64,000 nt of DNA from Azolla caroliniana (lineage: Eukaryota > Plantae > Polypodiophyta). Below are positions 12,535-37,400 of the stretch, in pieces. Position 1 is the first letter of the stretch. The number at the start of each line of letters is the position of its first letter. The notes beneath the pieces are model-generated. The model saw only the letters and a program-made list of their open reading frames with translations, did no database searches and was not told the origin of the DNA. Made by a program: the position numbers and the translations under genes. Location: contig JBHGNT010000001.1 in NCBI GenBank assembly GCA_043228905.1, positions 16,492,001 through 16,556,000 on the forward strand, written 5' to 3'.

Positions 12535-12593
12535 TTCTACCTTCTATCTCTCTCATTTCCTACTAATCTCTTATTCCTCTTTTCTTTCATCCC

Positions 12594-15500
12594 ATGGACA
12601 CTATTAGCGTTGAAGAATATCAATTTGTTTTCTCGGAATTTCAATGCGAAGTTCCATGCTTTGGAACAAGAAAACCAACGATTGCTGGGGGATCTTCAGC
12701 AAATCTCCTTAGAAAAGCAGCAAACGCAACAATAGCATGGGGAACTTGCGTTACGCGTGCAACAACTCGAAGCAACCATTGTAGCGATGCAACAACAAGG
12801 GCCCGGAACACAAGGGATTCATAAAGAACCCAAGCTTGGCCTTCCCACAAAGTTCCTTAACCAGGTATGATTAGTTATCCAAATGCATCCTTCCCGATAT
12901 CCCACCGATGCATCACGAGTGGGTTTAGTAGGCACTTTGTTAAGTGGCTAAGCGTTTCATGGTTCGCTCCACTATTAGAAAAGGAATCTCCGTTACTCAA
13001 CAATTTTGAAGAGTTTCTAGGTGAGTTTAAAGCATGTTTCGGAGATACTGACAGCATCAGGACCGCAATCAACAAAATTCGGCGATTACGCCAAGGTGAC
13101 CGTCCAGCCTCCGCATACGTTGCAGATTTTCGCCTACTCGCCGCCGATATCCCTTGGGATGATCAAGCGTTGATGGAGCAATTCCGTTATGGTTTACGCA
13201 ACGACGTCAAGGATTTACTCTTGAGCTTCCCCGAAGAGCCAAAGTCCTTAACAGAAGCAATTAGTCGCGCGGTGAGATGTGACAACCGCCTCTTTGAGCG
13301 ACGTTCGGAAAGACAGCTACAGATGCCGAGGCCAACATCAGAGCCCACCTACGCCTCAATGGTAGCAAGAACTTTTCCGAGGGAGTCATATAATGCGCCT
13401 CCAGCGAATACTCCGACTCCGATGGACATCTACACGTCGTCGAGGGCCATTATTCGAAGAAGAAAAGTAGCGACGCCGTACAAATCGACTATGTCTTTAC
13501 TGCGGTGGACCAGGACATATCACAATAAATTGCCCCCATAGGCTCGAAGACAGGTAAACCAAATAGTCACTAGTTCTAATTGTACTAAACCCGAGCCTAT
13601 TTCAGTAGGAATATCTGATAGTCTTAATAGTACTAATAGCCCAGATCTAGCGAACAAATTTGATGTCCTTAGTCAGTTAGAAGAAGAGTTAAACGACTAA
13701 GTCGAGCCAAAATAGGAGCCGTTTGGTTGGACAACCCTAGATCTGTGCAGCCCATTAGTGGTTCCATTCCCTCTAAGCAAGTTAGTGATGTGTTCGCAGC
13801 CCAAGTAATAGTTAGTACTAAAGGTACCCTTCCAGTACATGTCCTAGCACTCCTAGATTCCGGAGCTAACTCTTGCTTTATGGATAAGAAATTTTCTCAA
13901 GCTCATAAGATATCCCTAAGAAAATTCCAGTGTCCAGCCTCTATAGTAGTCATTGATGGACGTCCCATTGCTTCCGGAAATATCATAGAAGAGTCAGAGC
14001 CCATTAATATTGTCCTAGATAACTTAACATGTGTAGTATCATTTAATATTATTAGTATCCCAGAACATCCTATAGTTTTAGGATTACCGTGGTTCGAGTT
14101 ACATAACCCAGACATAGATTGGAGAACAAGAGAAATCCGGTGTCGACAAACCCAAGGGTCAACTCAGAAGATGGCAACCATTTCGCTACGTCAGTTGCGT
14201 AAAGAAGGGCGCGAGGAGGAAATGTTCCTCTTTGCAATATCAGGAAACCCCTCCAGCACTACTAAAGAAGAATCCACCGTTCAACTTCCCGAGAAGTATC
14301 GTCATTACGCCGATGTGTTCGATAAAGTACAAGCCAACACACTTCCTCATCATCGACCGTACGATTGCCCCATCGATTTACAATCGGGAAAAGAGACGCC
14401 ATGGGGACCTATCTACAATTTGTCACCAACCGAGCTAGAAGTTCTTCTGGCCTATATCGAGGAGAATTTGGAAAATGGTTTCATTTGACATTCGAAATCT
14501 CCAGCCGGCGCGCCCATTTTCTTCGTCAAGAAAAAAGATGGATCGCTTCGTCTCGTTGTAGATTACCGTGGCTTGAATAAGGTTACAATCAGGAATAGGT
14601 ATGCTCTTCCCCTTATCTCAAGTCTTTTAGAACGTATCAATGGTGCCAGGTTCTTCACGAAGGTCGACTTACGGGGAGGATATAACCTCGTACGGATCCG
14701 ACCAGGAGACGAATGGAAGACCGCGTTTCGCACCAGATATGGGCACTTCGAGTATACGGTCATGCCGTTCGGCCTCACTAATGCGCCGGCAGTTTTCCAG
14801 CACATGGCTAATGATATATTCCGAGATCTATTGGATGATTGTTTGATCATCTATTTGGATGATCTACTGGTTTATTCAAAGACCCAAGAAGAACATGATT
14901 CTCATGTACTATTAGTACTAAAACGACTTCGAGAACATGGTGTGTATGCAAAGCTGTAAAAATGTAGTTTCGGGTGCAACCAAGTGGAATTTCTCGGCTA
15001 CATCATTTCTTCAGAAGGCATCTCCATGGACCCAGCTAAGGTCAAAACGGTGGTAGAATGGCAGACTCCGCGTTCGGTGCGGGATGTGCAATGCTTCCTA
15101 GGCTTTGCCAATTTTTACCGGAAGTTCATACAAGATTACTCAAAGATCGTTCTACCTCTCACACAACTTACCAGGAAGGGACAACCGTTCATATGGTCTG
15201 AAGAAACGGACATGGCTTTCGAGAGTCTTAAAAAGGCATTTACATCGGCTCCAATTCTAGCTCATGTCGATCCGGAAAAAGCATTCATTATCGAAGCTGA
15301 TGCATCGGATTTTGCATTGGGGAGCATTCTGTCACAACAGGGGAATGATGAGAAGCTACATCTTGTGGCTTTTCACTCACGCAAGTTTGACGCCGCCGAA
15401 ATTAACTACGAAATTCATGATAAGGAGCTATTGGCAATAGTGGATTCTTTTATGCAATGGAGGCATTTTCTGGAGGGATCCTCTCATCCAGTCACCGTAT

Positions 15501-17284
15501 TTAGTGATCACAAGAATCTTGCCTACTTTCAAGATGCTCGTGTGTTGAATCGACGTCAAGCTCGGTGGGCCCACTTCCTGATGCGTTTCGACTTCAAAAT
15601 TACATATCGTCCGGGAAAGCACCAAGGGAAGGCAGATGCATTATCACGACGTTCGTATCTAGCACCCCGTCCCGGCGAGCTAGCTTTCGATAACCAAAAA
15701 CAAGTCATCTTGGGACCGGCACGACTACAAGTAACACAGATTTTTGACATGCCCATGGATTCCCGCGTTATCGATACCATACATGAAGACTTGAAGAAAA
15801 AAGCGTTCGCCCAAGCTATACTAGCACAAATTGATCCCTCTTGAGCGTCGTGTTCATAGTCGCAACCACCAGGTACGGACTATCGGCAATTCAAATACCA
15901 TGATGGATTACTCTTCTTTAAAGAACTTTTGTATGTTCCTAATGGTTCTTGCCGCCTTCGAGTAGTTCAAAACTGCCATGACACATATACAAGTGCGCAT
16001 TTTGGTAGTATTAAAACATTACATTTAGTACAACTACCATTCTGGTGGCCCTGTATGCGACAATTTGTCGAGGATTTTGTTCGGACTTGTGATACATGTT
16101 GCAGAGCGAAAATGCCAAGGCATCATCCATATGGTTTATTAGAACCATTACCAATTCCAAGCAAGCCGTGGCATTCCATTGCTCTAGACTTCATCACAGA
16201 TCTTCCAGTCTCTAAGGGGTTCAATGCGATTCTAACAGTGGTCGATCGATACACGAAGATGGCTCATTTCTTGCCATGTACTAAGGAGATCTCGAGTGAA
16301 GACACTGCCAAAATTGTCATGCGTGAAGTATGTCGGCATCATGGACTTCCCGATAGTATCATCAACGACCGTGGGCCCTAGTTCGTGTCAAAATTCTAGA
16401 AGCACCTTTTTAACATGCTCAAGGTCTCTTGTAACCTCTCCTCCGGCTACCACCCACAAACCAACGGCCAAGCTGAACGAACAAATCAAACGCTGGAGCA
16501 GTATCTGCGGTGCTTTCTTAGTTATCATCAGGACGACTGGGCAGATATTCTCCACTTCGCCGAATTTGCCTATAACAACTCTATCCACGCATCCACTAAA
16601 GTTACGCCATTTTATGCTTATACGGGATGTCACCCCCGGTGGAGTGTACTTGAAACCCCAGAGGTGTCCACAAATCCGTGCGCGGAGGATCGTTTGGAGC
16701 GGTTACGCAAGATACAAGCGGATTTATCTACTCATCTCCAGCAAGCTTAACAAACACACAAGGTCTACGTGGATCGTCATCGACTTCCATCCAGTTTTAA
16801 TATTGGAGATCGGGTGTGGCTGCTACGACGACACATCAAGACTACTTGCCCATGTGAGAAGTTGGATTATCGGCGATTAGGTCCTTTCCGTATTATTGGA
16901 CAGATTAATGATGTCACTTTTCGTCTCGATCTACCTCCTCAACTTCGGATACATCCGGTGTTTCATAGTTCTCTCCTCGAACCCTACCACGAGAGCACCA
17001 TCCCAAGACGTCTTATCCAACCTCCACCCCCCATCGAGCTTGAAGATGGGCCGGAGTACGAGGTTGCCGCCATCCTTGATTCCAAGATTGTTCGCAACAA
17101 GCTCTACTATCTAGTCGATTGGCTAGGCTATAGTCCCAACGAACGTACTTGGGAACCGATCGAGAATGTGACCAATACTCGTGCTCTTCTTGAAGACTTC
17201 CATCGTCAATATCCACACAAACCGGGTCCTCAATCCAAGACGACTCGTGACACTCGTCGTTTTAAAAGGGGGATAGTGTCATGA
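12594..17284 (+). pseudogene. C1 gag-pol with chromodomain, several stops and frameshifts
   Basis: ORFs 12867-13541, 13727-14488, 14573-14959, 14984-15844, 15929-16381, 16415-16750 and 16769-17284 tile gag-PR-RT-RH-INT-CHD. Confidence 0.92.
13688..13732 (+). promoter_or_regulatory. Putative -1 ribosomal frameshift signal (G UUA AAC + stem-loop) at the C1 gag/pol junction
   Basis: The gag stop taa is at 13698-13700 and pol is open in the -1 frame from 13673. A hairpin gtcgagccaaa..tttggttggac starts 6 nt after the heptamer. Confidence 0.7.
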
Positions 17285-18680
17285 TATGGCAAGACTCGAA
17301 CCCATGACCTTAGGTTATATGGGTCGAGCTCTTGACCATTAGACCATCTATTGTAATATGTAGGATATTATTTTCATTTACATTTTATTATAGGAAATTA
17401 GTGTATATTCCAGATTTCTCTGGAACATTCTAGAAGCTTCAGGATTACTTCTGAAAACACTATAAAAGAGGGCACTAGGCATTATGTTGAACCAAATTGG
17501 TTCAACGCCAGTCTTAAGCCTTTTAGCCACCATTGTATATTCTCTTCATATAATGCATATCTTTCTTATCATCACTCTCTCTCTCTCTCTCTCCCCGTCT
17601 CGCTCACTCCTTCCTTCTCTCGAAGAAGTTTTACACCTCTCATAGTGCTAATCCTTCGTTTAGTACTAATTCCTTCTCAGTCTCAGTACTGTTCTTGACA
17701 GCTACTCCATGAAATAGTTGCACTTCCCAATGTAAACATATATCCACTCGACTGGACCAAAGGGAATTGTTGGAACAAATATGGAGAAGGCAATGAAGAA
17801 AGCGAAAGAAATACAAACCGACACGGAAAGACACGACTAGTCAGATGACCGGGAACAAGGAACCAAAAGTACAACCAAATGGGCAGAACTCGCCGGAATG
17901 GCCGGACAACGGGCAAGAGTGGCCGGAGTGACTGGATAGCAGCCGAAGTGTCTAAGTGGCCGGACAACAGTCAGAGCGACCGTAGAGAGGTTGGAATGGC
18001 CGAATAACGGCCAAATAGCGGCTGAAGAGCAACTGGGCAACAGTCTGAGCGGTTGGAGAGCGGTCAGAAAGGCCGGAAACCAGTCGGAATAACCGGATGC
18101 AGACAGGCGGCCGGGACGACGGATCAGATGCAAGATCGAAAGACGACGGAAAACAATCGAACTGACAGCCGAAAAATCGACCGGAATGAGCCGGACTAAG
18201 ATGGCTCGAAGGCTAGAACACCGACAGAGACGGAGGAGAGGCCGGAGAGTGACCTAAGAGTGGTCGTAGTGGCCGAACAGCGCCAGAACGGAGGCGGCCG
18301 GACCAGACGATGCCGGACAACGACGAAGATGGAGACGGACAAACAGCGGGACGACGGCCAAACAGAGTCAAAGAGTGACAGAGATGATAGTCGAAATGTA
18401 TAGCCACGACAATGGCAACGGCAACGGCAACGACCAGATGATGGGACATTGACACCGAAAAGTGACGTAGCCGGCAACAGAGCCGCCGAAAAGCGAAGGA
18501 GACAATGACAACGACGGAGAGTAGGTCGACGAGCGGAGGAAGAAATGGCTTGAAACTACTGTTGGGATTTCGGTCCCTCCGGATGGGATGTCCGGAGATG
18601 AATGACGGCAAGCCCGGAGGCTGTTACGGAACCGTAGGATGAAGAGTACCCGGCATGAAGCCGGATGAAGAGTACCAGGT

Positions 18681-18778
18681 TACGGAGCCGGATGATGAAG
18701 ACCCCGGCTACGGAGCCGGATGCTGAAGACCCCGGCTACGGAGCCGGATGATGAAGACCCCGGCTACGGAGCCGGATG
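18681..18778 (+). repeat. 28-bp tandem repeat (tacggagccggatgatgaagaccccggc, ~3.5 copies) in the U3 of E; also in the E 3' LTR and both F LTRs
   Basis: Units start at 18681, 18709, 18737 and 18765. Confidence 0.95.
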
Positions 18779-19269
18779 ACGAATGTACCCGGAGAGAGAG
18801 ATCCGGATGCGGGGACATATTTGTGAATATGTTTGCCAAGAGCCCTTGAGGTTATATTTGTAAATAGCCCGAAAGTCATATGTGTATAAATATGACTTAG
18901 GGCAAACAGTTGATGTTGTTGCTTAATTTTCATGCGAAGTGAGAGCAGCCGAGAGAGAGAGAGAGAGAGAGACGAAGAGGTCGTTGCCTCTGTGTATTGC
19001 CGCCGCCTGTGGCGAAGACAGTGAGCTCAAGGTTGTTGCCTTGTAGCTTCACCAGTGTACATCCCTGTTCATAGTGATAGTTGGAGTTTGAGGCTCCCGT
19101 GGTTTTTCCCATTTAGGGTTTTCCACGTAAAACATCCAGTGTACCTTTCTCTCTATTGTCTTTCGTGCATTGTTGTATTTCCCGTTTTCTGTGAATCGAT
19201 CCTGTTCCTCGGTTGTGGCCGAGCACGGAATTTCAATAAAGTGGTATCAGAGCGACGATAACACAGAAG

Positions 19270-22200
19270 ATGGAAGGCGGCGGTAGCGGGCAGCCGGGAA
19301 TGATGGTGCTGAATGCGCAGAATTACGCCGACTGGAAGATCAAGATGGAGGATCTTCTGATTGTTCGGGACCTGTACGAACCGATTGACAGGTCGGAAAT
19401 ACCGAAGGGAGTACTTGAGTCGGAGTGGAAGCTCCTGAACCGGAAAGCAGTAGCGACGATCCGGCAATATGTCGATGTAAGTGTCCTGCAACATGTGGCG
19501 AACGATACGAACGCCTATGAGATGTGGAAGAAGCTGTCGGGCCTCTATGAGAGGAAGAATGCGTTGAACCGGACCTCCCTGATGAGAAAGATAGTGAACC
19601 TCAAGTACCGGGACGGCGAGAGTATGGTGGAACACGTAAGCACGTTCATGGGATTCGTGAACCAGCTTGCGGCGATCAAGTTCCCGTTGGAGGATGCAAT
19701 GCAAGCCATCATCCTGATGTGTACATTGCCGGACAGCTGGGAGAACTTGGTGGTGACTCTCAGCACCTCCTGCGCCGAAGATAACTTGTCCCTACAAACG
19801 GTAAAGACAAGTATTTTGAACGAAGAAGCGCGTCGGAGAGATAAAGAACCGGTCTCCGACTCGAAGGCGCTGCTTACCGAATCGGAACGGGGAAGACAAT
19901 GGAACCGGAGTCCGCAAAGACGGGAGAAGTCGGGGACCCGGTCGCAGTCAAGAGGAAGACCCACATGCTTCCACTGTGGGAAGCCGGGGCACTTCTGGAA
20001 GAATTGTCGGCATTACCGAAAAGACAACGGAGCCGACGACACCGATTCGAAGAAATCACCGGAGAGAAACGGTGCATACCGGGGAGCCACGGACCGGAGA
20101 GGTCCGGATCGGCGAGGGCAGGACCGGAAAGGAACGACGGCACTCGCGGCAAGTGAAGAAGAGATAATGCTTATTACCGAAGAGAGGGAGCTGAACCTTG
20201 CCGGTGTAGAGATGACCTGGGTGGTCGATTCCGGAGCGTCGTTCCACCTGACCCCGGAGAAGAAATACTTCTCATCCTACACAGCCGGTGAGCACGGCTG
20301 TGTCCGGATGGGAAATGAAGGTACGTGCCGGATAGCCGGCATAGGAGACGTGTGGCTGATGACATCAACCGGATGCAAGATGCTGCTGAAGGATGTGCGA
20401 CACGTTCCGGAGGTCCGATTGAACCTGATCTCGGCCGGGAGGCTAGATGATGAAGGCTACACGGGTAGCATCCGGAACGGTGTCATGAAGTTCAGCAAGG
20501 GGAGCCTGATCGTGGCTCGGGCCCGGAAGGTCAACACACTGTACCTGATGAATTCCCGGCTATGTCTGGAAGAGCTGAATGTGGCAGCCGACACTGCCGG
20601 TGAGCTGTGGCACAAAAGACTGTGCCACATGAGTGAGAAGGGGATGAAGAGGCTTGCAGAAGACAACCTCATTCCAGTGAAGCATGTGCACCTGGAGAAG
20701 TGCACCGACTGCCTGGCCGGTAAGCAAAACCGGACCTCCTTCCACTCAAGGCCACCGACGAGACGTAGCGCACCATTGGAGTTGGTGCACACCGATGTGT
20801 GTCAGGTAGAAACGAAGTCGCATGGCGGAGCCCAGTACTTCGTAACATTCATTGATGATCACAGCCGGAAGCTGTGGACGGCACCGTTGAAGACAAAGGA
20901 CCAAGTATTGTCCGTCTTCAAAGAACTCCACGCGAGAGTGGAAAGGGAATCCGGCAAGAAGCTGAAAGCGATACGAGCGGATAACGGAGGGGAATACCGG
21001 GGGCAGTTCCAGGAGTACTGTCGCTCGAAGGGAATCCGGCTCGAGTTTACTGTGCCGAAGACGCCGGAACTAAACGGGCTGGCCGAGAGGATGAACCGGA
21101 CCATAATGGAGAGGGTCCGGAGTATGCTGGCGCATGCGAAATTACCCAAGGGGTTTTGGGCTGAGGCAATGTCGACGGCGACATACGTGATAAACAGATC
21201 ACCCTCAGTACCTTTGGACGGAGACACGCCGCAGAAAGTGTGGACCGGTAAGGAAGTGTCCTACCGGCATCTGAAGGTGTTCGGGTGTCTCGCATACGTG
21301 CATGTGGCAAAGGACCGGAGAGGAAAGCTAGATCCAAAGACCCGGCCATGCATATTCCTCGGTTACGGCGACGACGAGTTCGGCTACCGAGTATGGGACC
21401 CGGTCGACAAGAAGATATTCAGGAGTCGAGATATCATTTTCATGGAGGACAAGACGCTCGCCGACTGGGAGTCGGAGAAGAAGATGAAGAGCTCCAAGTC
21501 GACCGGTGAGGATAAACTCTACGAGGAGCAGTCCCGACCGGCAAGGGACCGGTTAACACTCGAAGACCCGGCCGAAGACGGTGAAGAAACAGAACCGGCC
21601 GAAGAAGATGAAAATGATACCGGAACCGGCCCCGATCCCGAAATGGATTCGGATGAAGAAGAAGAATCGGAAGAACCGGTTACCGAAGCTCCCGAACGGA
21701 GATATCCTCTAAGAGAGAGAAGGGCCCCCCGGAGATTTCCGGAACCAGAGCACGTGCTGCTAACCGACGAGGGGGAGCCGGAGAGCTTTGAAGAAGCAAA
21801 GCACGACACCCAGAGCCGCAGGTGGTTAAGTGCCATGCAGGAGGAGATGGATTCCCTGCATGAGAACCACACATATGAACTTGTGGAGTTGCCGAAAGGA
21901 AAGCGGGCACTTCGAAACAAGTGGGTGTTCAAGCTGAAACCGGGAGATGCCGGAAACCCCCAGAGATACAAAGCCAGGATCGTGGTGAAGGGGTTCCAGC
22001 AGAAGAAGGGCGTCGACTTCGACGAGATATTTGCCCCGGTAGTGAAGATGACCTCTATCCGGACGGTGCTGAGCATAGCGGCAAGCATGGACCTCGAGGT
22101 AGAACAGATGGACGTGAAGACGGCATTCCTTCACGGTGACCTCGATGAAGAGATCTACATGCAGCAACCGGAAGGATTCGAGAAGAAAGGGAAGGAGCAC

Positions 22201-23346
22201 CTGGTATGCCGGTTGAAGAAGAGCCTTTACGGACTGAAGCAGGCTCCCCGGCAATGGTACCGGAAGTTCGACTCCTTCATGACCGACGAAGGGTACCACA
22301 AAACGCAGTCTGATCACTGCGTGTTTGTGAAGAAGTTCGAAGGAGGAGACTCTCTAATACTCCTCCTGTACGTGGACGACATGTTGATCGTCGGACGGGA
22401 CCAGGTCAAGATACGGGTGCTGAAGGAGGCACTTCACCGAACCTTCTCAATGAAGGACCTGGGTCCGGCGAGGCAAATACTAGGGATGCACATCATCCGG
22501 GACCGGAAGAAGAAGCAGTTGTGGCTGTCACAGGAGAAGTACGTGACAAAGGTGCTTCACCGGTTCAACATGTCGGAAGCAAGACCGGTCGGGTCAACCC
22601 TCCCGGCAAACTGCAAGTTGTCCAGCAAGCAAAGCCCCAAGACAAAGGCTGAGAAGGAGGACATGATGAAAGTACCATATGCCTCTGCCGTCGGAAGCTT
22701 GATGTACGCAATGGTGTGTACAAGACCGGACATAGGATATGCAGTCGGAGTGGTGAGCCGGTACATGAGCAATCCCGGCAAAGAGCACTGGAACGCGGTC
22801 AAGTGGATACTCCGATACCTGAAGGGCACGGCAAACGTGTGCCTCCGATTCGGCTCCGGTAAGCCCGAATTCGACGGCTTTACCGATTCGGATATGTCGG
22901 CTGATGCAGATACCAGCCGGTCCACATCAGGGTATGTGATGACGTATGCAGGAGGAGCTGTTTCGTGGCAGTCGAGGCTGCAGAAGACGGTTGCGTTGTC
23001 AACCACGGAGGCGGAGTACATGGCAGCTGTTGAAGCCGGCAAGGAAATAATATGGATGAAGGACTTCATTAGAGAGCTCGGTATCCAACAGGAGGAGTAC
23101 CGACTCTACTGCGACAGTCAGAGTGCCATCCACCTTGCGAAGAACGCGGCCTACCATTCCCGGACGAAACACATCCAGCGGAGATACCACTGGATCCGGG
23201 AGAGGATAGAAGACGAGGAGTTCGTGCTGACGAAGATCCACACTGACGAGAACGGGTCGGATATGCTGACCAAGGTGCTCACACCCGACAAGCTGGAAGC
23301 ATGCCGGAAGAGGATCGGATTGGAGAGACATCCCATGCCGAAGTGA
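19270..23346 (+). CDS. Gag-Pol polyprotein of copia E (1358 aa)
   Basis: CFHCGKPGHFWKNC zinc knuckle, WVVDSGAS protease, integrase D-D-E (HTDV, DNGGEY, LAERMNRT), RT (QMDVKTAFLHG, YVDDML), RNase H (TDSD, TEAEY, CDSQSA). Confidence 0.97.
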   Translation: MEGGGSGQPGMMVLNAQNYADWKIKMEDLLIVRDLYEPIDRSEIPKGVLESEWKLLNRKAVATIRQYVDVSVLQHVANDTNAYEMWKKLSGLYERKNALNRTSLMRKIVNLKYRDGESMVEHVSTFMGFVNQLAAIKFPLEDAMQAIILMCTLPDSWENLVVTLSTSCAEDNLSLQTVKTSILNEEARRRDKEPVSDSKALLTESERGRQWNRSPQRREKSGTRSQSRGRPTCFHCGKPGHFWKNCRHYRKDNGADDTDSKKSPERNGAYRGATDRRGPDRRGQDRKGTTALAASEEEIMLITEERELNLAGVEMTWVVDSGASFHLTPEKKYFSSYTAGEHGCVRMGNEGTCRIAGIGDVWLMTSTGCKMLLKDVRHVPEVRLNLISAGRLDDEGYTGSIRNGVMKFSKGSLIVARARKVNTLYLMNSRLCLEELNVAADTAGELWHKRLCHMSEKGMKRLAEDNLIPVKHVHLEKCTDCLAGKQNRTSFHSRPPTRRSAPLELVHTDVCQVETKSHGGAQYFVTFIDDHSRKLWTAPLKTKDQVLSVFKELHARVERESGKKLKAIRADNGGEYRGQFQEYCRSKGIRLEFTVPKTPELNGLAERMNRTIMERVRSMLAHAKLPKGFWAEAMSTATYVINRSPSVPLDGDTPQKVWTGKEVSYRHLKVFGCLAYVHVAKDRRGKLDPKTRPCIFLGYGDDEFGYRVWDPVDKKIFRSRDIIFMEDKTLADWESEKKMKSSKSTGEDKLYEEQSRPARDRLTLEDPAEDGEETEPAEEDENDTGTGPDPEMDSDEEEESEEPVTEAPERRYPLRERRAPRRFPEPEHVLLTDEGEPESFEEAKHDTQSRRWLSAMQEEMDSLHENHTYELVELPKGKRALRNKWVFKLKPGDAGNPQRYKARIVVKGFQQKKGVDFDEIFAPVVKMTSIRTVLSIAASMDLEVEQMDVKTAFLHGDLDEEIYMQQPEGFEKKGKEHLVCRLKKSLYGLKQAPRQWYRKFDSFMTDEGYHKTQSDHCVFVKKFEGGDSLILLLYVDDMLIVGRDQVKIRVLKEALHRTFSMKDLGPARQILGMHIIRDRKKKQLWLSQEKYVTKVLHRFNMSEARPVGSTLPANCKLSSKQSPKTKAEKEDMMKVPYASAVGSLMYAMVCTRPDIGYAVGVVSRYMSNPGKEHWNAVKWILRYLKGTANVCLRFGSGKPEFDGFTDSDMSADADTSRSTSGYVMTYAGGAVSWQSRLQKTVALSTTEAEYMAAVEAGKEIIWMKDFIRELGIQQEEYRLYCDSQSAIHLAKNAAYHSRTKHIQRRYHWIRERIEDEEFVLTKIHTDENGSDMLTKVLTPDKLEACRKRIGLERHPMPK

Positions 23347-25459
23347 AGGGGGAGTTTGTTGGGATTTCGGTCCCTCCGGATGGGATGTCCGGAGATGAAT
23401 GACGGCAAGCCCGGAGGCTGTTACGGAACCGTAGGATGAAGAGTACCCGGCATGAAGCCGGATGAAGAGTACCAGGTTACGGAGCCGGATGATGAAGACC
23501 CCGGCTACGGAGCCGGATGCTGAAGACCCCGGCTACGGAGCCGGATGATGAAGACCCCGGCTACGGAGCCGGATGACGAATGTACCCGGAGAGAGAGATC
23601 CGGATGCGGGGACATATTTGTGAATATGTTTGCCAAGAGCCCTTGAGGTTATATTTGTAAATAGCCCGAAAGTCATATGTGTATAAATATGACTTAGGGC
23701 AAACAGTTGATGTTGTTGCTTAATTTTCATGCGAAGTGAGAGCAGCCGAGAGAGAGAGAGAGAGAGAGACGAAGAGGTCGTTGCCTCTGTGTATTGCCGC
23801 CGCCTGTGGCGAAGACAGTGAGCTCAAGGTTGTTGCCTTGTAGCTTCACCAGTGTACATCCCTGTTCATAGTGATAGTTGGAGTTTGAGGCTCCCGTGGT
23901 TTTTCCCATTTAGGGTTTTCCACGTAAAACATCCAGTGTACCTTTCTCTCTATTGTCTTTCGTGCATTGTTGTATTTCCCGTTTTCTGTGAATCGATCCT
24001 GTTCCTCGGTTGTGGCCGAGCACGGAATTTCAATAACTACACAGAAGAAGAAGAAGAAGAAACAGAGGGGAGAAAGAGAAAACAAGATGAGCATGAACTA
24101 AGACAAATAGACAGAGATCAAATAGATTGGAAGAGGATGAAGAGGAAGATAGAAGCCTTTCTCTTGAAGAGAAGAAAGCTAACGAATCGCAAGAAGGCGG
24201 GAAGAAGAGAAAGATGCAGACAACGGCAAGAGAGAAACGTAAGAAGCAGGAAAAGGACAAACTGAACAAAGAAGGAAAGGAAAAAGACCTAATGCAAATT
24301 AATAAATAAATAAATAAAATAGGAAAAAGAGAGGGAAAAGGAGGACAATAAGGAGCATTTAAGGAATTTTAAAAATCAAAGGGCACCTACAGAATTTCGA
24401 AAACTCATTAACCTAAAAGAAATGAACGTGATCCACACACAACTCACAAAATACAAAGAAGAACACACATACATACAACGGTTTTTTTGATGACCCGAAT
24501 GATGTCACCGAAGTTTGTAAGCCGACAGAATGAGAATGTTTGTGTCGCGGACGATTTGCTGACGGACAAAGATGTTCGAGTCAAGCATTCCGATCGAGGG
24601 AGTCGATCGTTGAAAGGACCGATGGAAGTTTCGGTCGAAGAAATATCATCATCAAGGCATGTGGGATTGACGTGCAAGGCACTTTCCCACGGGCGTGCCA
24701 TATTGTGTTACCCATTATAGGGAGCAGGAGGCGGACACGGTTTGGATCATCAAGCAGTTGAAGGAAGAGTGACAAGCCGCAGAAAATAAATCACAGATGG
24801 GAGCTGAACGGATCCAGTGCATCCTCTGGTCATGGCTCACTAAGACCAAAAGCTTGATTGATGACAGCTCTATGCGTTGGTGGGAAAAATGGGCGCAGAA
24901 TACCGCGGAACTCCAATTGCTTAGGGCGAACGTTGAAAACCGGCGAAAGGAGGGTGACGACTAATATATGCTGACCTCGGAGGACTTCACCACCATCAAG
25001 GATGAGCTGGCGGAAGATTTCACAGCCCTGGCGGATGAACAATTGGTGTAGGTCCGGTAGCTCGCTCGTAGCTCAACTGGACGATGATTGGTTGGAGGCT
25101 CAAATCCAGTTCGAAAGCTATGAGCGGTCCCGGCTCCGAGAAGAAAAAGCGCGAAAGATAGCAACGGTCAACCTTAGTGATGAGGAACCATCGCCGGTGC
25201 AAAGAACGGAGGGGGAATAGGCCGGGGTCAGTCAGCCACAGACAACTCTGACGAACCAACGACAGAAACGTCGGTGTCAGAGTGACAAACGGAGCCACAG
25301 CCACAAACAGAACAACAACAGCAACCACAACAGCAACAACAGATTCTCGACGAGCCATTGGAAATTTTGGAGCAAAGCATTCTGGACATTTTGGACGAAG
25401 CGTAAAAGGGCCGGATAGTGGGTTCAACGTACAAGGCACTGTCCCACAGGCGTGCCATG

Positions 25460-25916
25460 TGTTACCGTCCGGCAAAGAAGGCTTAAGGAGGTCCAAACCA
25501 GAGTGTGAAAGGAATAGTTATTCGGGAACTGTGGTAATTAGTAGTCTTAATATATACATATTATTATATAAAAAGATGTGGACGGATGGACCGGAATCGG
25601 TATGCCGATCCGGATCCGGAATGATTCCGTAAAGGTGCCGGTTGGCACCGTTTTGTATTTCACACCGGAAACCTATATAAAGGCCCGATTACAATGTAAT
25701 CAAGGACGGATAATTAATAAAGTTTATTGTCTTAATCTTCCAGTGTTGATTACCGTTCTATATTCATTGTTATATCTTACGCGTGTTAATTACGGATGGC
25801 TAAGTAATCGATTAAGGTCTAAGTAAGCGTTGTGACGTAAGTCATTCTGCCGTACCACCCTTTGGTGATGTGTCTTAAGTGGACACCTTGTGTTAGGCTG
25901 TTGTTCGGCCCTAGCA
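25460..25916 (+). repeat. LTR of D (inferred 3' LTR)
   Basis: tgttacc...ctagca termini, cctatataaagg near 25672, homology to 34035-34426. Copia-B integrase begins right after it. Confidence 0.8.
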
Positions 25917-26726
25917 ATAATAGATGGTCCAGTACATTCCATTGATGTGGAACTTTGTTGTCCAACATTCCTTCCATCTCCGTGGTTATCTCCTACATTT
26001 TCAGATTTTTTCTCTGTTTTCATTTTCACAGTTTTCATCAGTTTTGACATTCTGTTTTGGGATGTACCATTTGCCCAACTCATCAAATATCACATCCCGA
26101 CTTACCACAATCTTTTTTTTCACATGGTTATAGCATCTATACCCTTTTTGCTCCTCTGAATATCCAACAAAAACACATTTTTCAGCCTTTGGATCCAGCT
26201 TACTTCTCACTTTAGCAGGTACATGAACATAAACAAGGCATCCAAATAGTTTTAAGTGTCCTGAGCTAGGTTTCCTTCCATAGAAACATTCTTTAGGAGT
26301 TACTTCATGTACCCTAGATGTTATACATCTATTTAGAATATAATTAGTTGTGTTTACATCTTATGCCCAGTAATACCATGGCATATATTTTTCAGTCATC
26401 ATAGCCCTTGCTATGTTCACCAAAGTTCTGGTTTTTCTTTCAGCAACTCCATTTTGTTATGGAGTATATCTACATGTGAATTGTCTTCTTATTTCTTGAT
26501 TGCATAAAAAAAAAAGAATTCATTGGAGAAATATTCTCCTCCATCAGATCTTAGACATTTTATTCTTGTTCTGGCTTGTTTTTCTACCATACCTTTGAAC
26601 TTCCGGAAGCAATTAAATATTTCACTTTTTTCTTTCATGAAGTACACCCATGTTTTCCTTGAGCAATCATCAATAAATGTTACATAAAATGTGCAGCTAC
26701 CAATAGATGCATTTTTTGTTGGTCCC
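25917..26726 (-). pseudogene. Inverted Copia-B integrase core and SH3 region
   Basis: The minus strand reads PTKNASIGSCTFYVTFIDD, continuing HTDVWG at 12082, and later RSKLDPKAEKCVFVGY (ORF 26001-26210). Confidence 0.92.
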
Positions 26727-29700
26727 TGTCAGGAACAGTACTGAGACAGAGAAGGAATTAGTACTAAACGAAGGATTAGTACTATGAGAGGTGTAGAACT
26801 TCTTCGAGAGAAGGAAGGAGTGAGCGAGACGGGGAGAGAGAGAGAGAGATCTCGAGAGAGAGAGTGAGTGATGATAAGAAAGATATGTATTATATGAAGA
26901 GAATATACAATGGTGGCTAAAAGGCTTAAGACTGGCGTTGAACCAATTTGGTTCAACATAATGCCTAGTGCCCTCTTTTATAGTCTTTTCAGGAGTAATC
27001 CTGAAGCTTCTAGAATGTTCCAGAGAAATCTGGAATATACACTAATTTCCTATAATAAAATGTAAATGAAAATAATATCCTACATATTACAATAGATGGT
27101 CTAATGGTCAAGAGCTTGACCCATATAACCTAAGGTCATGGGTTCGAGTCTTGCCATATCATGACACTATCCCCCCTTTAAAATGACGAGTGTCACGAGT
27201 CGTCTTGGATTGAGGACCCGGTTTGTGTGGATATTGATGATGGAAGTCTTCAAGAAGAGCACGAGCATTGGTCACATTCTCGATCGGTTCCCAAGTACGT
27301 TCGTTGGGACTATAGCCTAGCCAATCGACTAGATAGTAGAGCTTGTTGCGAACAATCTTGGAATCAAGGATGGCGGCAACCTCGTACTTCGGCCCATCTT
27401 CAAGCTCGATGGGGGGTGGAGGTTGGATAAGACGTCTTGGGATGGTGCTCTCGTGGTAGGGTTCGAGGAGAGAACTATGAAACACCGGATGTATCCGAAG
27501 TTGAGGAGGTAGATCGAGACGAAAAGCGACATCATTAATCTGTCCAATAATACGGAAAGGACCTAATCGCCGATAATCCAACTTCTCACATGGGCGAGTA
27601 GTCTTGATGTGTCGTCGTAGCAGCCACACCCAATCTCCAATATTAAAACTGGATGGAAGTCGATGACGATCCGGGTAGACCTTGTGTGTTTGTTGAGCTT
27701 GCTGGAGATGAGTAGATAAATCCCCTTGTATCTTGCGTAACCGCTCCAACCGATCCTCCGCGCAAGGATTTGTGGACACCTCTGGGGTTTCAAGTACACT
27801 CCACCGGGGGTGACATCCCGTATAAGCATAAAAAACTTTAGTGGATGCGTGGATAGAGTTGTTATAGGCAAATTCGGCGAAGTGGAGAATATCTGCCCAG
27901 TCGTCCTGATGATAACTGAGAAAGCACCGCAGATACTGCTCTAGCGTTTGATTTGTTCGTTCAGTTTGGCCGTCGAATTGTGGGTGGTAGCCGAAGGAGA
28001 GGTTACAAGAGACCTTGAGCATGTTAAAAAGGTGCTTCCAGAATTTTGACATGAACTAGGGTCCACGGTCGTTGATGATACTATTGGGAAGTCCATGATG
28101 CCGACATACTTCATGCATGACAATTTCGGCAGTGTCTTCATTGGAGATCTCCTTAGTACATGGCAAGAAATGAGCCATCTTCGTGTATCGATCGACCACC
28201 GTTAGAATCACATTGACCCCCTTAGAGACTGGAAGATCTGTGATGAAGTCTAGAGCAATGGATTGCCATGGCTTGCTTGGAATTGGTAATGGCATTTTCG
28301 CTCTGCAACATGTATCACAAGTCCGAACAAAATCCTCGACAAATTGTCGCATACAGGGCCACCAGAATGATCGTTGTACTAAATGTAATGTTTTAGTACT
28401 ACCAAAATGCCCAGTTGTATATGTGTCATGGCAGTTTTGAACTACTCGAAGGCGGCAAGAACCATTAGGAACATACAAAAGTTCTTTAAAGAAGAGTAAT
28501 CCATCATGGTATTTGAATTGCCGATAGTTCGTACCTGGTAGTTGCGACTGTGAACACGACGCTCGAGAGGGATCAATTTGTGCTAGTATAGCTTGGGCGA
28601 ACGCATCTGTCTTCAAGTCTTCACGTATGGTATCGATAACGCGGGAATCCATGGGCATGTCAAAAATCTATGTTACTTGTAGTCGTGCCGGTCCCAAGGT
28701 GACTTGTTTTTGGTTATCGAAAGCTAGCTCGCCGGGACGGGGTGCTAGATACGAACGTCGTGATAATGCATCTGCCTTCCCTTAGTGCTTCCCCAGACAA
28801 TATGTAATTTTGAAGTCGAAACGCGTCAGGAAGTGGGCCCACCGAGCTTGACGTCGATTTAACACACGAGCATCTTGAAAGTAGGCAAGATTCTTGTGAT
28901 CACTAAATACGGTGACTGGATGAGAGGATCCCTCCAGAAAATGCCTCCATTGCATAAAAGAATCCACTATTGCCAATAGCTCCTTATCATGAATTTCGTA
29001 GTTAATTTCGGCGGCGTCAAACTTGCGTGAGTGAAAAGCCACAAGATGTAGCTTCTCATCATTCCCCTGTTGTGACAGAATGCTCCCCAATGCAAAATCT
29101 GATGCGTCAGCTTCGATAATGAATGCTTTTTCCGGATCGACATGAGCTAGAATTGGAGCCGATGTAAATGCCTTTTTAAGACTCTCGAAAGCCATGTCCG
29201 TTTCTTCAGACCATATGAACGGTTGTCCCTTCCTGGTAAGTTGTGTGAGAGGTAGAACGATCTTTGAGTAATCTTGTATGAACTTCTGGTAAAAATTGGC
29301 AAAGCCTAGGAAGCATTGCACATCCCGCACCGAACGCGGAGTCTGCCATTCTACCACTGTTTTGACTTGAGTTGGGTCCATGGAGATGCCTTCTGAAGAA
29401 ATGATGTAGCCGAGAAATTCCACTTGGTTGCACCCGAAACTACATTTTTACAGCTTTGCATACACACCATGTTCTCGAAGTCGTTTTAGTACTAATAGTA
29501 CATGTGAATCATGTTCTTCTTGGGTCTTTGAATAAACCAGTAGATCATCCAAATAGATGATCAAACAATCATCCAATAGAACTCGGAATATATCATTAGC
29601 CATGTGCTAGAAGACTGCCGGCGCATTAGTGAGGCCGAACGGCATGACGGTATACTCGAAGTGCCCATATCTGGTGCGAAACGCGGTCTTCCATTCGTCT

Positions 29701-32346
29701 CCTGGTCGGATCCGTACGAGGTTATATGCTCCCCGTAAGTCGACCTTCGTGAAGAACCTGGCACCATTGATCCGTTCTAAAAGACTTGAGATAAGGGGAA
29801 GAGCATATTCCTGATTGTAACCTTATTCAAGCCACGGTAATCTACAACGAGACAAAGCGATCCATCATTTTTCTTGACGAAGAAAATGGGCGCGCCGGCT
29901 GGAGATTTCGAATGTCGAATGAAACCATTTTCCAAATTCTCCTTGATATAGGCCCGAAGGATTTCCAGCTCGGTTGGTGACAAATTGTAGATCGGTCCCC
30001 ATGGCGGCTCTTTTCCCGGTTGTAAATCGATGGGGCAATCGATGTGGTGGCTTGTACTTTATCGAACACATCGGCGTAATGACGATACTTCTCGGGAAGT
30101 TGAACGGTGGATTCTTCTTTAGTGGTGCTGGAGGGGTTTACTGATATTGCAAAGAGGAACATTTCCTCCTCGCGCCCTTCTTTACGCAACTGATGTAGCG
30201 AAATGGTTGCCATCTTCTGAGTTGACCCTTGGGTTTGTCGACACCGGATTTCTCTTGTTCTCCAATCTATGTCTGGGTTATGTAACTCGAACCACGGTAA
30301 TCCTAAAACTATAGGATGTTTTGGGATACTAATAATATTAAATGATACTACACATGCTAAGTTATCTAGGACAATATTAATGGACTCTGACTCTTCTATG
30401 ATATTTCCGGAAGCAATGGGACGTCCATCAATGACTACTATAGAGGCTGGACACTGGAATTTTCTTAGGGATATCTTATGAGCTTGAGCAAATTTCTTAT
30501 CCATAAAGCAAGAGTTAGCTCCGGAATCTAGGAGTGCTAGGACATGTACTGGAGGGGTACTTTTAGTACTAACTATTACTTGGGCTACGAACACATCACT
30601 AACTTGCTTAGAGGGAATGGAACCACTAATGGGCTGCACAGATCTAGTGCTGTCCAACCAAACGGCTCCTATTTTGGCTCGACTTAGTTGTTTAACTCTT
30701 CTTCTAACTGACTAAGGACATCAAATTTGTTCGCTAGATCTGGGCTATTAGTACTATTAAGACTATCAGATATTCCTACTGAAATAGGCTCGGGTTTAGT
30801 ACAATTAGAACTAGAGACTATTTGGTTTACCTGTCTTCGAGGCCTATGGGGGCAATTTATGGCGATATGTCCTGGTCCACCGCAGTAAAGCCATAGTCGA
30901 TTTGTACGGCGTCGCTGCTTTTCTTCTTCGTATAATGGCCCTCGACGACGTGTAGGGTCAATCTCCATCGGAGTCGGAGTATTCGCTGGAGGCGCATTAT
31001 ATGACTCCCTCGGAAAAGGTCTTGCTACCACTGAGGCGTAGGTGGGCTCTGATCTTGGCTTCGGCATCTGTAGCTATCTTTCCAAACGTCGCTCAAAGAG
31101 GCGGTTGTCACATCTCACCGCGCAAATGATTGCTTCTGTTAAGGACTTTGACTCTTCGGGGAAGCTCAAGAGTAAATCCTTGACGTCGTTGCGTAAACCA
31201 TAATGGAATTGCTCCATCAATGCTTGATCATCCCAAGGGATATCGGCGGCGAGTAGGCAAAAATCTGCAGCGTATGCGGAGGCTGGACGGTCACCTTGGC
31301 GTAATCGCCGAATTTTGTTGATTGCGGTCCTGATGCTGTCAGTATCTCCGAAACATGCTTTAAACTCACCTAGAAACTCTTCAAAATTGTTGAGTAACGG
31401 AGATTCCTTTTCTAATAGTGGAGGGAACCATGACAACGCTGAGCCACTTAACAAAGTGCCTACTAAACCCACTCGTGATGCATCGGTGGGATATCGGGAA
31501 GGATGCATTTGGATAAATAATTGTACCTGGTTAAGGAACCCTCTAAACTGCGATCATGTTCCATCGAACTTCGTGGGAAGGCCAATCTTGGGTTCTTTAT
31601 GAATTCCTTGTGTTCCAGGCCCTTGTTGTTGCATTGCTACGATGGTTGCTTCGAGTTGTTGCACGCGTAATGCAAGTTCCCCATGTTGTTGTTGCGTTTG
31701 CTGCTTTTCTAAGGAGATTTGCTGAAGATCCCCCAGCAATCGTTGGTTTTCTTGTTCCAAAGCATGGAACTTCTCTTTCAAGCATTGAAATTCTGAGAAA
31801 ACAGATTGATATTCTTCAGTGCTAACAGTGGCCATGGGATGAAAGAAAAGAGGAATAAGAGATTAGTAGGAAATGAGAGAGATAGAAGGTAGAGAAATTG
31901 GTTCAAACTGTCTGGAACAGTACTGAGACAGAGAAGGAATTAGTACTAAACGAAGGATTAGTACTATGAGAGGTGTAGAACTTCGGAGAGAGAAGGAAGG
32001 AGTGAGCGAGACGGGGGGAGAGAGAGAGAGAGAGCGAGAGAGAGTGAGTGATGATAAGAAAGATATGTATTATATGAAGAAAATATACAATGGTGGCTAA
32101 AAGGCTTAAGACTGGCGTTGAACCAATTTGGTTCAACATAATGCCTAGTGCCCTCTTTTATAGTGTTTTCAGGAGTAATCCTGAAGCTTCTAGAATGTTC
32201 CAGAGAAATCTGGAATATACACTAATTTCCTATAATAAAATGTAAATGAAAATAATATGCTACGTACTACAATAGATGGTCTAATGGTCAAGAGCTCGAC
32301 CCATATAACCTAAGGTCATGGGTTCGAGTCTTGCCATATCATGACA
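26727..32346 (-). mobile_element. C2: chromovirus closely related to C1, opposite orientation, degenerate
   Basis: LTRs 26727-27166 and 31909-32346, self-priming-type PBS 31895-31908, ORFs 31554-31835, 31074-31508, 30684-31067, 29842-30657, 28782-29423, 28056-28658 and 27159-28052 (chromodomain). Confidence 0.95.
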
Positions 32347-32789
32347 GTAGCAAGAAACAAGATACTGTTGTATTGTCAAGTACTAAAGCTGAGTATAAAG
32401 GAGCTGCGATAGCTACTTGTGAAGAGGTATAGATTAGAAGATTTCTTTTTGATTTGGGAGAATATATAGATGGTGTTGTCACAATTTCGTGTGACAATAT
32501 GAGCAGCATTCAACTGGCAAACAACCTAGTGTTCCATGCAAGAACAAAGCACATCGAAGTGCATTATCACTTTGTTAGAGAAAAAGTGATTGATGGAGAA
32601 GTGGATCTGTTGTATGTAAGTACAAATAAGCAAGTGGCTGATATTCTTACGAAGGGATTGAGCATGGAAAAACATACACAGTTTACAGACATGATGGGAG
32701 TTATAACCATCGGCATGGTAGCTGAAAAGCATGAAGAAAAGAAGATTGAACATGATCCAAAGAAAGGATAAGTTGAGCTTGGGGGGGAG

Positions 32790-34017: not shown

Positions 34018-34028
34018 TGTGGTCGCCA
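34018..34028 (-). promoter_or_regulatory. PBS of Gypsy-A (tggcgaccaca), tRNA-Arg type
   Basis: Lies 6 nt downstream of the 5' LTR end. Matches the recalled 3' end of plant tRNA-Arg(UCG), UGUGGUCGCCA. Confidence 0.65.
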
Positions 34029-34034
34029 AATTAG

Positions 34035-34426
34035 TGTTGATCCTTGGCCGGACTAGCCACAACACAAGGTGTCCTCTTTCGGAACACTTCTCCAAAGGGG
34101 TGGTAAGGTTAGGATGTTTTGTAATTCACACACGTAAGATCTTAATATTAACCACAGATGGCAAGTAAGCAAGCATTAATTAATCAATATATGTAATGTG
34201 CCATTACTTCTGTAAGCATTACATCGGGTCAGATCCTTCTATAGGAATCCGGTGTCATTACAAAACAGGGCCCTATCGGCAACCGGCTACGAATCTGTTC
34301 AGATCCGGATCCGTGCAGCTATACTGGATCCATCCCTCCGAATACTAATTCTATTTATTTCTAAATATATATATTCCTTCAACTCACCCTTTACCCACTT
34401 ATCCTTTGGCCCTTAACCGGCCAACA
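34035..34426 (-). repeat. Gypsy-A 5' LTR
   Basis: tgttg...caaca termini, followed by PBS and gag on the minus strand. It interrupts the C3 3' LTR 42 bp from that LTR's start. Confidence 0.85.
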
Positions 34427-37400
34427 ATAACATAAGGTCATGGGTTCGAATCTTGCCATATCATGACACTATCCCCCCTTTTAAAATGACAAGTGTCACG
34501 AGTCGTTTTGGATTGAGGACCCGGTTTGTCTGGATATTGACAATGGAAGTCTTCAAGAAGAGAACGAGCATTGGTCACATTCTCTATTGGTTCGCAAGTA
34601 CACTCACTGAAACTATATCCTAGCCAATCGACTAAATAGTAGAGCTTGTTGCGAACAATCTTGGAATCAAGGATGGCAACAATCTCGTACTCAGGTCCAT
34701 CTTCAAGTTCAATCGGGGGTGGAGGTGGTTTAATACGACCTGGGATGGTGTTGTCTTGATAGGGTTCTAGGAGAGAACTATGAAACACCAGATGTATCCG
34801 TAGTTGCGGAGGTAGATCGAGACGAAAAGCAACATCATTAATCTTTTCGATAATATGGAAAGGACCTAATCGTCGATAATCCAACTTCTCGCATGGGCAA
34901 GTAGTCTTGATGTGTCGTTGTAGTAGCCATACCCGATCTCCAATGTTAAATCTGGATGGAAGCAGATGACGATCCGCGTAAACCTTGTGTGTTTGTTGAG
35001 CTTGTTGTAGCTGAGTAGATAAATCTGCTTGTATCTTGCGTAGCCGCTCCAAACGATCCTCTACACAAGGATTTCTAGGTAACTCTAGGGTTTCAAATAC
35101 ACACCACCGGGGGTGACAACCTGTGTAAGCATAAAATGGTGTAACCTTTGTCGATGAGTGGATGGAGTTATTATATGAAAATTCGGCAAAGTGGAGAATA
35201 TCGGCCCAAGCATCTTGATGATAGCTTAGAAAGCATCGAAGATATTGTTCCAGCGTTTGAATTTTTGGTTGTGCTTGGCTGTTTGTTTGCAGGTGGTAGT
35301 CAGAGGAGAGGTTACAAGTGACCTTGAGCATTTTGAAGAGGTGCTTCCAGAATTTTGAGACGAACTGGGGTCCACGATCGCTGATGATACTATCGGGGAG
35401 GCCATGATGCCGACATACCTCACGCATGACAGTTTCAGCGGTTTCTCCACTGGCGATTTCCTTAGTACATAGCAAGAAATGAGCCATCTTCGTATATCGA
35501 TCTACTACTGTTAAGATCGCATCGAATCCCTTAGAAACTGGAATATTTTTATTGAAATCTAGAGCAATGGATTCCCATGTCTTGCTTGGAATTGGTAATG
35601 GTTCTAATAAAGCATATGGATGATGCTTTGGCATTTTTGCTCTACAACATGTATCAAAAGTCCGACCAAATCTTCGACAAATCGTCGCATATAGGGCCAC
35701 CAGAATGTTCGTATTACTAAATCTAATGTTTTAGTACTACCAAAAGGCCCAACTGTATATGTTTCATGATAGTTTTGGACTACTCTGAGGCGACAAGAAC
35801 CATTAGGGACATACAAGAGTTTTTTAAAGAATAGTAATCCATCATGACATTCGAATTGTCGATAGTCCGTACTTGGTTGTAGCGACTATGAACAAGATGC
35901 TCGAGAGGGATCGATTTGTGCTAGAATGGCTTGGGCGAAAGCATCTATCTTCAAGTACTCACGTATGGTATTGATAACATGGGAATCTAATGGCATACCG
36001 AAGACCCACGTTGCTTGCAGTCGTGCCGGTCCCAAGATTACTTGCTTTTGGTTATCGAAAGTTGGCTTGTCGGGATGCGGTGCTAGATATAAGTGCCGTG
36101 ATAATGCATCTACCTTCCCTTGTTGCTTTCCCAGAAGATATGTAATTTTGAAGTCGAAACGAGTGAGGAATTGGGCCCAACGAGCTTGACATCGATTTAA
36201 CACACGAGCATTCTGAAAGTAGGCAAGGTTTTTGTGATCACTGAATACGGTGACTTGATGAGAAGATCCCTCTAGAAAATGCCTCCATTGAATAAAAGAG
36301 TCCATTATTGCTAATAGCTCCTTATCATGAATTTCATAGTTGATTTCAATGGTGTCAAACTTGCGTGAGTGGAAAGCCTTAGGATGTAGCTTTTCATCAT
36401 CGCCTTGTTGTGACAGAATGCTACCCAAGGCGAAATCTGACGCATCTGCCTCAATGATGAATGGTTTTTCCAGATCAACATAAGCTAGAATAGGAGCTGA
36501 TGTAAATGCATTCTTAAGACTCTCAAAATCCATGTCTGCTTCTTCAAACCAAACGAACGATTATCACTTCCTGGTAAGCTGTGTGAGAGGCAGAACAAGC
36601 ATTGAGTAATCATGTATAAACTTCCGGAAGGAATTAGCAAAGCCTAAAAAGCATTGCGCATCTCGCAACGAACATGGAGTTGGTGCCACTCTACCACCGT
36701 TTTGACCTTAGCTGGATCCATGGAGATGCCTTCCGAGTAGATGACATAGCCTAGAAATTCCACCTGGTTGCACCCGAAACTATATTTTTCCAGCTTTGCA
36801 TAAAGACCATGTTCTCGAAGTCTTTTTAGTACTAACAGTACATGAGAATCATGCTCGTCTTGGGTCTTCGAATAAACTAGTAGATCATCCAAATAGATGA
36901 TCTAACAAACATCCAAGAGATCTCGGAATATATCATTTTCCATGTGCTGGAAGACTGTTGGCGCATTAGTGAGACCGAATAGCATGACCGTATACTCGAA
37001 ATGCCCATATCTAGTGCGAAACACCATCTTCCATTCATCTCCTGGTCGGATTTGTACGAGGTTATATGCTCCTCATAAGTTGATATTTGTGAAGAACCTT
37101 GCACCATTGATCCATTCTAAAAGACTTAAGATAAGGGGAAGTGCATACCTATTCCTGATGGTGACCTTATTCAAGCCACGGTAATCTACGATGAGACGTA
37201 GTGATCCATCCTTTTTCTTGACAAAGAAAATGGGTGCGCCAGCTAGAGATTTCAAATGTCGAATAAAACCATTTGCCAAATTCTCCTCTATATAGGCTCG
37301 AAGGACTTCTAGCTCGGTTGGTGACAAGTTGTAGATCGGTCCCCATGGTGGTTCTTTTCCCAGTTGTAATTCAATGGGGCAATCATACGGTCGATGGTGA

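Follow-up and report, generated by a model that had tools for sequence, protein, structure and literature searches.

The window, a 64,000-nucleotide stretch of Azolla caroliniana DNA analyzed here in full, is a nest of plant long terminal repeat (LTR) elements in which Pfam recognized copia, chromovirus, and non-chromovirus gypsy open reading frames (ORFs). A copia element (9931-33236) lies inside the gag of a gypsy element, Gypsy-A. Within the copia element are two chromovirus copies, at 12083-17700 (+) and 26727-32346 (-), with swapped target-site duplications, which indicate that the 9 kb between them (17701-26726) was inverted later by recombination between the chromovirus copies. The chromovirus LTR start (12083-12130, 32300-32347, and 34440-34470) contains either GACTCGAACCC or GATTCGAACCC, which is complementary to the T-loop box of a tRNA. 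Also present is a very young copia family (18560-24036 and 54004-59446) with LTRs 100% and 99.85% identical and intact ORFs of 1,368 and 1,374 aa.

The inverted block contains the 3' LTR of a partial element, D, and the two copies of the motif that is the subject of this report. The D LTR (25460-25916, plus strand) runs from TG to CA, has a TATA-like box near 25674, and is followed by host copia DNA, namely a copia integrase fragment (25917-26725, minus strand) that marks the insertion site and belongs to the segment inverted later. The 5' part of D was lost along with the copia RT. Upstream of the LTR lies the broken C-terminal tail of the lineage's 3' extra ORF (24716-25405, plus strand), with its stop codon 52 nt before the CCA that ends the motif. 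Gypsy-A, of the same lineage as D, occupies the minus strand at 34019-34426, where its 5' LTR (34426-34035) is followed by a 6-nt spacer, a primer site, TGGCGACCAC (34019-34028), and then gag; this order fixes its orientation. No motif precedes the Gypsy-A 5' LTR. The sense orientation that a reading made earlier from the sequence alone had assigned to the D LTR was confirmed by its collinearity with the Gypsy-A 5' LTR (global score of 72, compared with -102 for the reverse complement and -70 for the best of 300 shuffles). That reading had also reported no purine tract before the D LTR, and the preceding 15 nt indeed comprise 8 purines and no tract.

The motif and the LTR start in relatives

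Relatives were collected by scanning metagenome contigs with the last 23 nt of the motif, which gave 89 matches at 88 loci; the contig names form one accession series and may represent one host group rather than independent hosts. We also aligned contigs from four public runs (coded organisms A to D, three studies) to 25395-25490, obtaining 629, 763, 257, and 285 contigs per run. The commonest loose contig ends departed on the left from 25417-25423 and on the right from 25463-25477, mostly with low agreement, and their positions outline a conserved island composed of the motif and the first LTR bases. With 89 metagenome matches and 257 to 763 contigs in each of the four runs, the motif and the LTR start form one unit, as the sequence-only reading had proposed. 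In 88/89 matches, 1 to 8 nt (in most cases 2) separate the CCA from the LTR start, the spacer being 2 nt in 58/88 relatives, 5 nt in 22, and 4 nt in 6. This arrangement is spread over 29 LTR-start clusters (77 compared), and one locus, L060, has a close relative of the D LTR start behind the same motif (88.5% over 157 nt). Among viral contigs, the strict pattern gave no matches, a loose pattern gave 25 that were unrelated, and no relatives of the polyprotein P0001 (described below) were found.

The coding context of the relatives agrees with a 3' position. Pol occurs in sense upstream of the motif in four matches (L007, L015, L046, and L066); one 35-aa piece is antisense (L025). A primer site and gag follow the LTR in relatives, with gag downstream in sense in four matches (L015, L051, L058, and L077) and antisense beyond the LTR end in one (L028). 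The extra ORF was found in 34 matches, in 33 of which it is in sense and upstream of the motif. It measures ∼1,100 aa when whole (1,109 aa, in sense, at 71-3397 on the minus strand of contig L007) and has no Pfam match. Its later part is charged and of low complexity, and its 10 homologues are all from metagenomes.

Against the conserved order stands the thought, which we consider barely credible, that the D LTR is abutted, in a one-off junction, by the regular 5' primer site of an element on the opposite strand. The window is nested and rearranged, and the stretch between its motif copies is chimeric, as such an accident would have it. This candidate was rejected because the motif and LTR stand in the same order in all 89 matches, because L007 carries the integrase C terminus, the 1,109-aa extra ORF, the motif, and the LTR on a single 39x contig, and because gag lies behind the inverted site, TGGCACGCC, in 0/89 matches. 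A chimeric junction and a minus-strand 5' LTR, both raised by the sequence-only reading as grounds for giving up its claim, thus do not describe the family.

An ordinary polypurine tract (PPT) in relatives was the third such ground. None of 85 motif-selected relatives had a purine run of at least 9 ending within 30 nt of the LTR, and the longest run within 60 nt was 8, whereas the six other 3' LTRs of the window used as controls all had runs of 9 to 11 (6/6). One element that served as a control was a 3.6-kb, gag-only LTR element at 42987-46582 (plus strand), which has an ordinary purine tract. Because selection of the relatives relied on the last 23 nt of the motif, tract-bearing family members would escape, and the set cannot reveal members that kept the tract. 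Six LTR starts lie outside the pattern selection; two have the motif, four have unrelated DNA and begin at TG, and none has a tract. Among the motif-selected relatives, the motif is a conserved, lineage-wide replacement of the PPT.

For 26 LTRs, the other end was visible. A primer site follows in 13, and the remaining 13 meet other DNA at CA (calls made with a rough regular expression, about three of them doubtful). Those that continue into a primer site could represent tandem copies or collapse by the assembler. Of 13 loci with both ends visible, nine have a 5' site of the TGGCGACCAC type, three have TGGCACGCCC, and one has a variant. We take the TGGCGACCAC type to be the site for a second arginine tRNA. 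In the six loci examined, neither a complete element with both flanks nor a target-site duplication was found, and D is without its 5' part.

Two motif copies had been claimed for the window, and they are where they were said to be: 25418-25466 and 24661-24712 are 82.7% identical over 52 nt (E value of 5e-8), and GGCGTGCCA occurs in the 64 kb, whichever strand is considered, only at 24692 and 25449. The second copy, first described as diverged, proved not to be a duplication within the same element and belongs to a different subfamily. It consists of the motif, a 5-nt spacer, and the first 7 LTR bases (24661-24712, plus strand) of a non-autonomous sister family, with the rest of its LTR missing. 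Window positions 24365-24713 match the sister family at 82 to 91%; members of that family run on into their own LTR, and the longest aligned contigs diverge from the window at 24702-24712, which identifies the second copy as another subfamily's 3' junction. Its internal 3' region (24037-24660, plus strand) is 82 to 91% identical to L036, L079, L039, L030, and L059. A further internal part (17768-18559, plus strand; left limit set by eye), collinear with L039, L030, and L005 at 18216-18379, is separated from the part that begins at 24037 by the young copia insertion at 18560-24036. The window copies are therefore two subfamilies joined by local rearrangement, with a chimeric stretch between them. 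Chimeric joins 7 to 155 nt past the LTR start recur (window position 24713, L060, L030, and L011) and could reflect early plus-strand template switches or assembly errors. Near 4720-6280 of L059, a sister-family LTR adjoins a cluster of tRNA-Pro genes and fragments.

Anatomy of the motif

The motif is a 40-nt unit (25418-25457, plus strand) at the position of a PPT that reads as a copy of the 3' part of tRNA-Arg. On the plus strand, it comprises a T-arm 5' half (25418-25427), an inner hairpin with an AAG loop and, in the window copy, one broken pair (25429-25439), a T-arm 3' half (25442-25447), and an acceptor strand with CCA (25448-25457), which a 2-nt spacer (25458-25459) separates from the LTR. 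When the hairpin was omitted from the pattern and one base was added, all 15 matches in viral and prokaryote collections were tRNA-Arg genes (13 TCG and 2 TCT, all prokaryotic or phage). From these matches, the motif appears to be the T-arm and acceptor end of tRNA-Arg, one base short and with a hairpin inserted in the T-loop. The likeness to a tRNA 3' end noted earlier therefore stands, and it extends further than had been claimed, into the T-arm 5' half across an interrupted T-loop. Its end presumably corresponds to the 3' end of the host plant's tRNA-Arg(UCU). In an ARAGORN search, the window contained no tRNA and the relatives' loci contained only two tRNA-Pro genes; a tRNA-Arg gene was found neither in the window nor in the 88 relative loci. 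Rfam gave two chance matches far under threshold.

Conservation extends beyond the search pattern. The T-arm 5' half, which lies outside it, has at most one mismatch to GTGGGTTCGA in 53/68 unique contexts and at most two in 60/68, compared with none and 0.24%, respectively, of background windows. The four positions of the inner hairpin's 5' arm are conserved in 57, 57, 61, and 67 of the 68 contexts. A single base, G or A, separates CCCAC from GGCGTGCCA in 89/89 matches (the pattern permitted one or two), and at the free position facing G67 of the tRNA, 68/68 contexts have G or A, either one being compatible with pairing. The T-loop letters drift in whole subfamilies (ATCGA, TTTAC, and TTCAC), and one subfamily has lengthened the inner hairpin and thereby lost a base that matches the tRNA. 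GTGGG folds on CCCAC as an RNA hairpin in 33/41 motif variants. The stem described by the sequence-only reading is present, but the 71-nt region around it folds no more stably than shuffles (z-scores of 0.2 and -0.04), and z-scores of motif regions of 71 to 78 nt likewise lacked significance. Finally, the LTR-internal junctions mirror one another, with AACA, a C-led spacer, and TGGC on either side; the first spacer base is C at 81/88 left ends and 12/13 right ends.

Priming of the plus strand

The edge of U3 is set by the plus-strand primer, and the borders of these elements with host DNA, clean at TG and CA, imply that a primer must act at that edge. The same definition of the U3 edge is described for Ty3 in the accessible text of PMC5371799. 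The earlier proposal that the motif marks the start of the plus strand is accordingly well supported by position, while the identity of the priming RNA is something that we infer. We give an even chance to the reading that the motif acts, on minus-strand DNA, as a second primer-binding site for host tRNA-Arg, which would likely prime the plus strand. In its general form, about which we are equally balanced between belief and doubt, this lineage without a PPT would prime both strands with host tRNAs. In most subfamilies, these would be two distinct arginine tRNAs, and the second would bind minus-strand DNA at a three-part site from which a hairpin is extruded.

The predicted course would begin with tRNA-Arg starting the minus strand at the 10-nt 5' site. 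RNase H would clear the RNA upstream of U3, and the freed DNA would fold its hairpin, leaving TGGCACGCCC open. A tRNA-Arg could then pair through its last 10 bases and subsequently through the two halves of its T-arm; one base of the tRNA would bulge out, and the small hairpin in the DNA would be extruded. RT would extend the CCA through the spacer into U3, RNase H would remove the tRNA, and integrase would trim the spacer, as at the other end. In keeping with such pairing, a proxy tRNA-Arg(TCT) (bacterial, with RNA-RNA energies) co-folded with the minus strand in three segments for 4/4 motifs tried, with a ddG of -14.7 to -27.8 kcal/mol; the plus strand gave -4.8 to -6.9 kcal/mol, and the lowest value among shuffles was -13.9 kcal/mol. 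The T-arm 5' half would be of no use for recognition of an RNase H junction and fits tRNA binding; T-arm boxes take part in tRNA binding in Ty1 and Ty3, according to the portions of PMC5371799 consulted.

Where a locus has the TGGCACGCCC 5' site (3/13), that site is the full complement of the last 10 bases of the motif, and pairing between the two might circularize the RNA or self-prime the minus strand. We consider this highly improbable as the function of the motif, given that 9/13 loci carry the TGGCGACCAC-type site, with which the motif can form only ∼5 pairs, and that the motif does not covary with the 5' site across subfamilies. Such pairing would also leave the missing tract and the T-arm halves unexplained.

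Priming by the element's own RNA is a possible, though rather unlikely, explanation. Here the hairpin and CCA tail would survive RNase H and be cut after CCA, serving as a non-purine PPT that imitates a tRNA primer. The GTGGG/CCCAC RNA hairpin in 33/41 variants is suited to this role, a second tRNA would be unnecessary, and the subfamily with the longer inner hairpin gave up a tRNA-matching base for it. If RT paused at the base of the hairpin, moreover, its RNase H would lie ∼13 bp behind, near the edge of U3 where the spacer measures 2 nt. The distance of ∼13 bp is that between RT and RNase H in Ty3, as given in the part of PMC5371799 available. A spacer that ranges from 2 to 8 nt, however, is unlike a cut at a fixed distance, and in 9/13 loci the motif does not follow the type of the element's own 5' primer. 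The nine long loci lack a conserved 5' acceptor strand, which argues against a full tRNA-like fold in cis, and the cleavage by Ty3 RT is suited to Ty3's own purine tract.

Thus, conserved T-loop letters, mirrored junctions, and the variable spacer favor a host tRNA acting in trans, whereas loop drift, stable RNA folding, and the exposure of a tRNA-DNA hybrid to RNase H favor a primer in cis; sequence alone does not decide between the two. A tRNA-DNA hybrid is itself a substrate of RNase H, which counts against the host tRNA. Two further points weigh on the same side: the G/A pattern at the free position equally fits methyl-CpG decay, and a second tRNA species would need packaging.

It is also conceivable, but improbable, that the plus strand begins elsewhere, at internal purine tracts or random RNA pieces, and that the motif serves strand transfer, bridging of the RNA ends, or as a tRNA-fragment decoy. 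The sister family is strongly purine-rich a few hundred bases upstream, and 13/26 LTR ends continue into a primer site, as in tandem copies or one-LTR circles; such circles arise from HIV 3'-PPT mutants in the text seen of PMC9785060. The tandem joins may nevertheless be assembler collapse, and the other 13 ends meet unrelated DNA at CA, while the four motif-less LTR starts begin at TG, like normal integration. In addition, at the known 3' tRNA sites of Ty3 and Gypsy the RNA carries the complement of the tRNA, whereas the motif is in the tRNA's own sense.

Priming of the plus strand from a PPT is regarded as a general property of LTR retrotransposons and retroviruses. That a lineage can succeed and reach high copy numbers without such a tract indicates that this step can be rewired too, and whether a second tRNA or a built-in tRNA-like primer is responsible, the U3 end would be defined in a new way. 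The motif also provides a short, testable substrate for primer choice by RT and RNase H. Annotation tools that require a PPT would miss or misorient such elements.

Lineage and known systems

Gypsy-A matches P0001, an intact polyprotein of 1,901 aa, at 56 to 80% along its length. Pfam places the domains of P0001 and P0009 in the order gag-PR-RT-RH-IN of Ty3/gypsy elements, the LTRs are of the TG...CA type, and a primer site follows the 5' LTR. A PPT before the 3' LTR, another Ty3/gypsy trait, is absent from the window copy and from the motif-selected relatives (0/85) and present in 6/6 controls. The acidic residues of RT, RNase H, and integrase are kept in P0001 in comparison with Ty3. No chromodomain was found in P0001, P0007, P0009, or P0022, and none of these four polyproteins gave an RNase_H or RVT_3 match at an E value of 0.1; without aRH, the "Tat-type" label of the sequence-only reading had to be dropped. 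The nearest named relatives over the full RT-RH region are from Riccia, Marchantia, and Adiantum (∼50 to 52%), and a short Adiantum protein is 69% identical to part of the RNase H; a non-seed land plant is thus the likely host. A quick IQ-TREE tree of 61 rows (62 proteins hand-picked from 196, one dropped as short) placed the family in a clade of its own (SH-aLRT of 100) outside a 17-row seed-plant clade without aRH (99) and did not resolve it relative to aRH-bearing rows; the tree came with long-branch warnings, and its reference labels are inferred, with no REXdb sequences among the rows. The lineage thus appears to be an unplaced non-chromovirus Ty3/gypsy group that is not Tat and not clearly Athila. 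Another member of it in the window (39860-41445, minus strand) is 62% identical to the P0009 gag and has a 10-nt spacer followed by TGGCACATCC, a variant of the primer site.

Our literature search, which largely covered sources other than subscription journals, retrieved no description of a tRNA-end copy replacing the PPT. Variation is described for minus-strand priming, which can use a whole tRNA, a half tRNA, or a self-primer (PMC6317226, in the sections available). Tat elements (TatIII, Ogre, and Retand) resemble the present family in being non-chromoviruses in which tRNA-Arg primer sites are common, but the accessible part of the same source defines them by aRH (92 to 100%), which is absent here. 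Athila elements share the lack of aRH and chromodomain, several bases of AT-rich spacer that separate the LTR from the primer site, and a long 3' extra ORF, as far as the consulted text of PMC6317226 and 10.64898/2026.03.20.713144 extends. They differ from this family, in those same portions, in their tRNA-Asp/Asn primer (Arg-type here, with sites beginning TGGCGACCAC or TGGCACGCCC), in an extra ORF that is antisense in REXdb (PMC6317226) and in sense here, and in a conserved PPT junction (97% of Brassicaceae elements; ATHILAfinder, 10.64898/2026.03.20.713144), which is missing here; the quick tree, moreover, places the family outside the seed-plant clade without aRH. Phygy and Selgy are defined by clade membership, a 4-bp target-site duplication, and a tRNA-Trp or tRNA-Ala primer; here no duplication was seen, and the primer is putatively of the Arg type.

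Yeast Ty3 is homologous in RT and RNase H (E value of 1e-90) and, in the portions of PMC5371799 at hand, has the same domain order, TG...CA LTRs, and tRNA primer site after the 5' LTR; its plus strand, however, starts from a PPT just upstream of U3, the place taken here by the tRNA-end copy. The two-site tRNA binding of Drosophila Gypsy (PMC1635307) and the bipartite sites of Ty1 and Ty3 likewise involve a second tRNA-related sequence near the 3' end that touches the T-arm. As described in the text available, those sites are complementary to the tRNA on the RNA and bridge the RNA ends for the minus-strand start with one tRNA, whereas the present motif is in tRNA sense on the RNA, includes the CCA, and sits at the PPT position. 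HIV-1 3'-PPT mutants also lack a working tract before U3, but in the accessible part of PMC9785060 they yield 1-LTR circles and no integration, while the elements described here keep their integrase and join host DNA cleanly at TG and CA.
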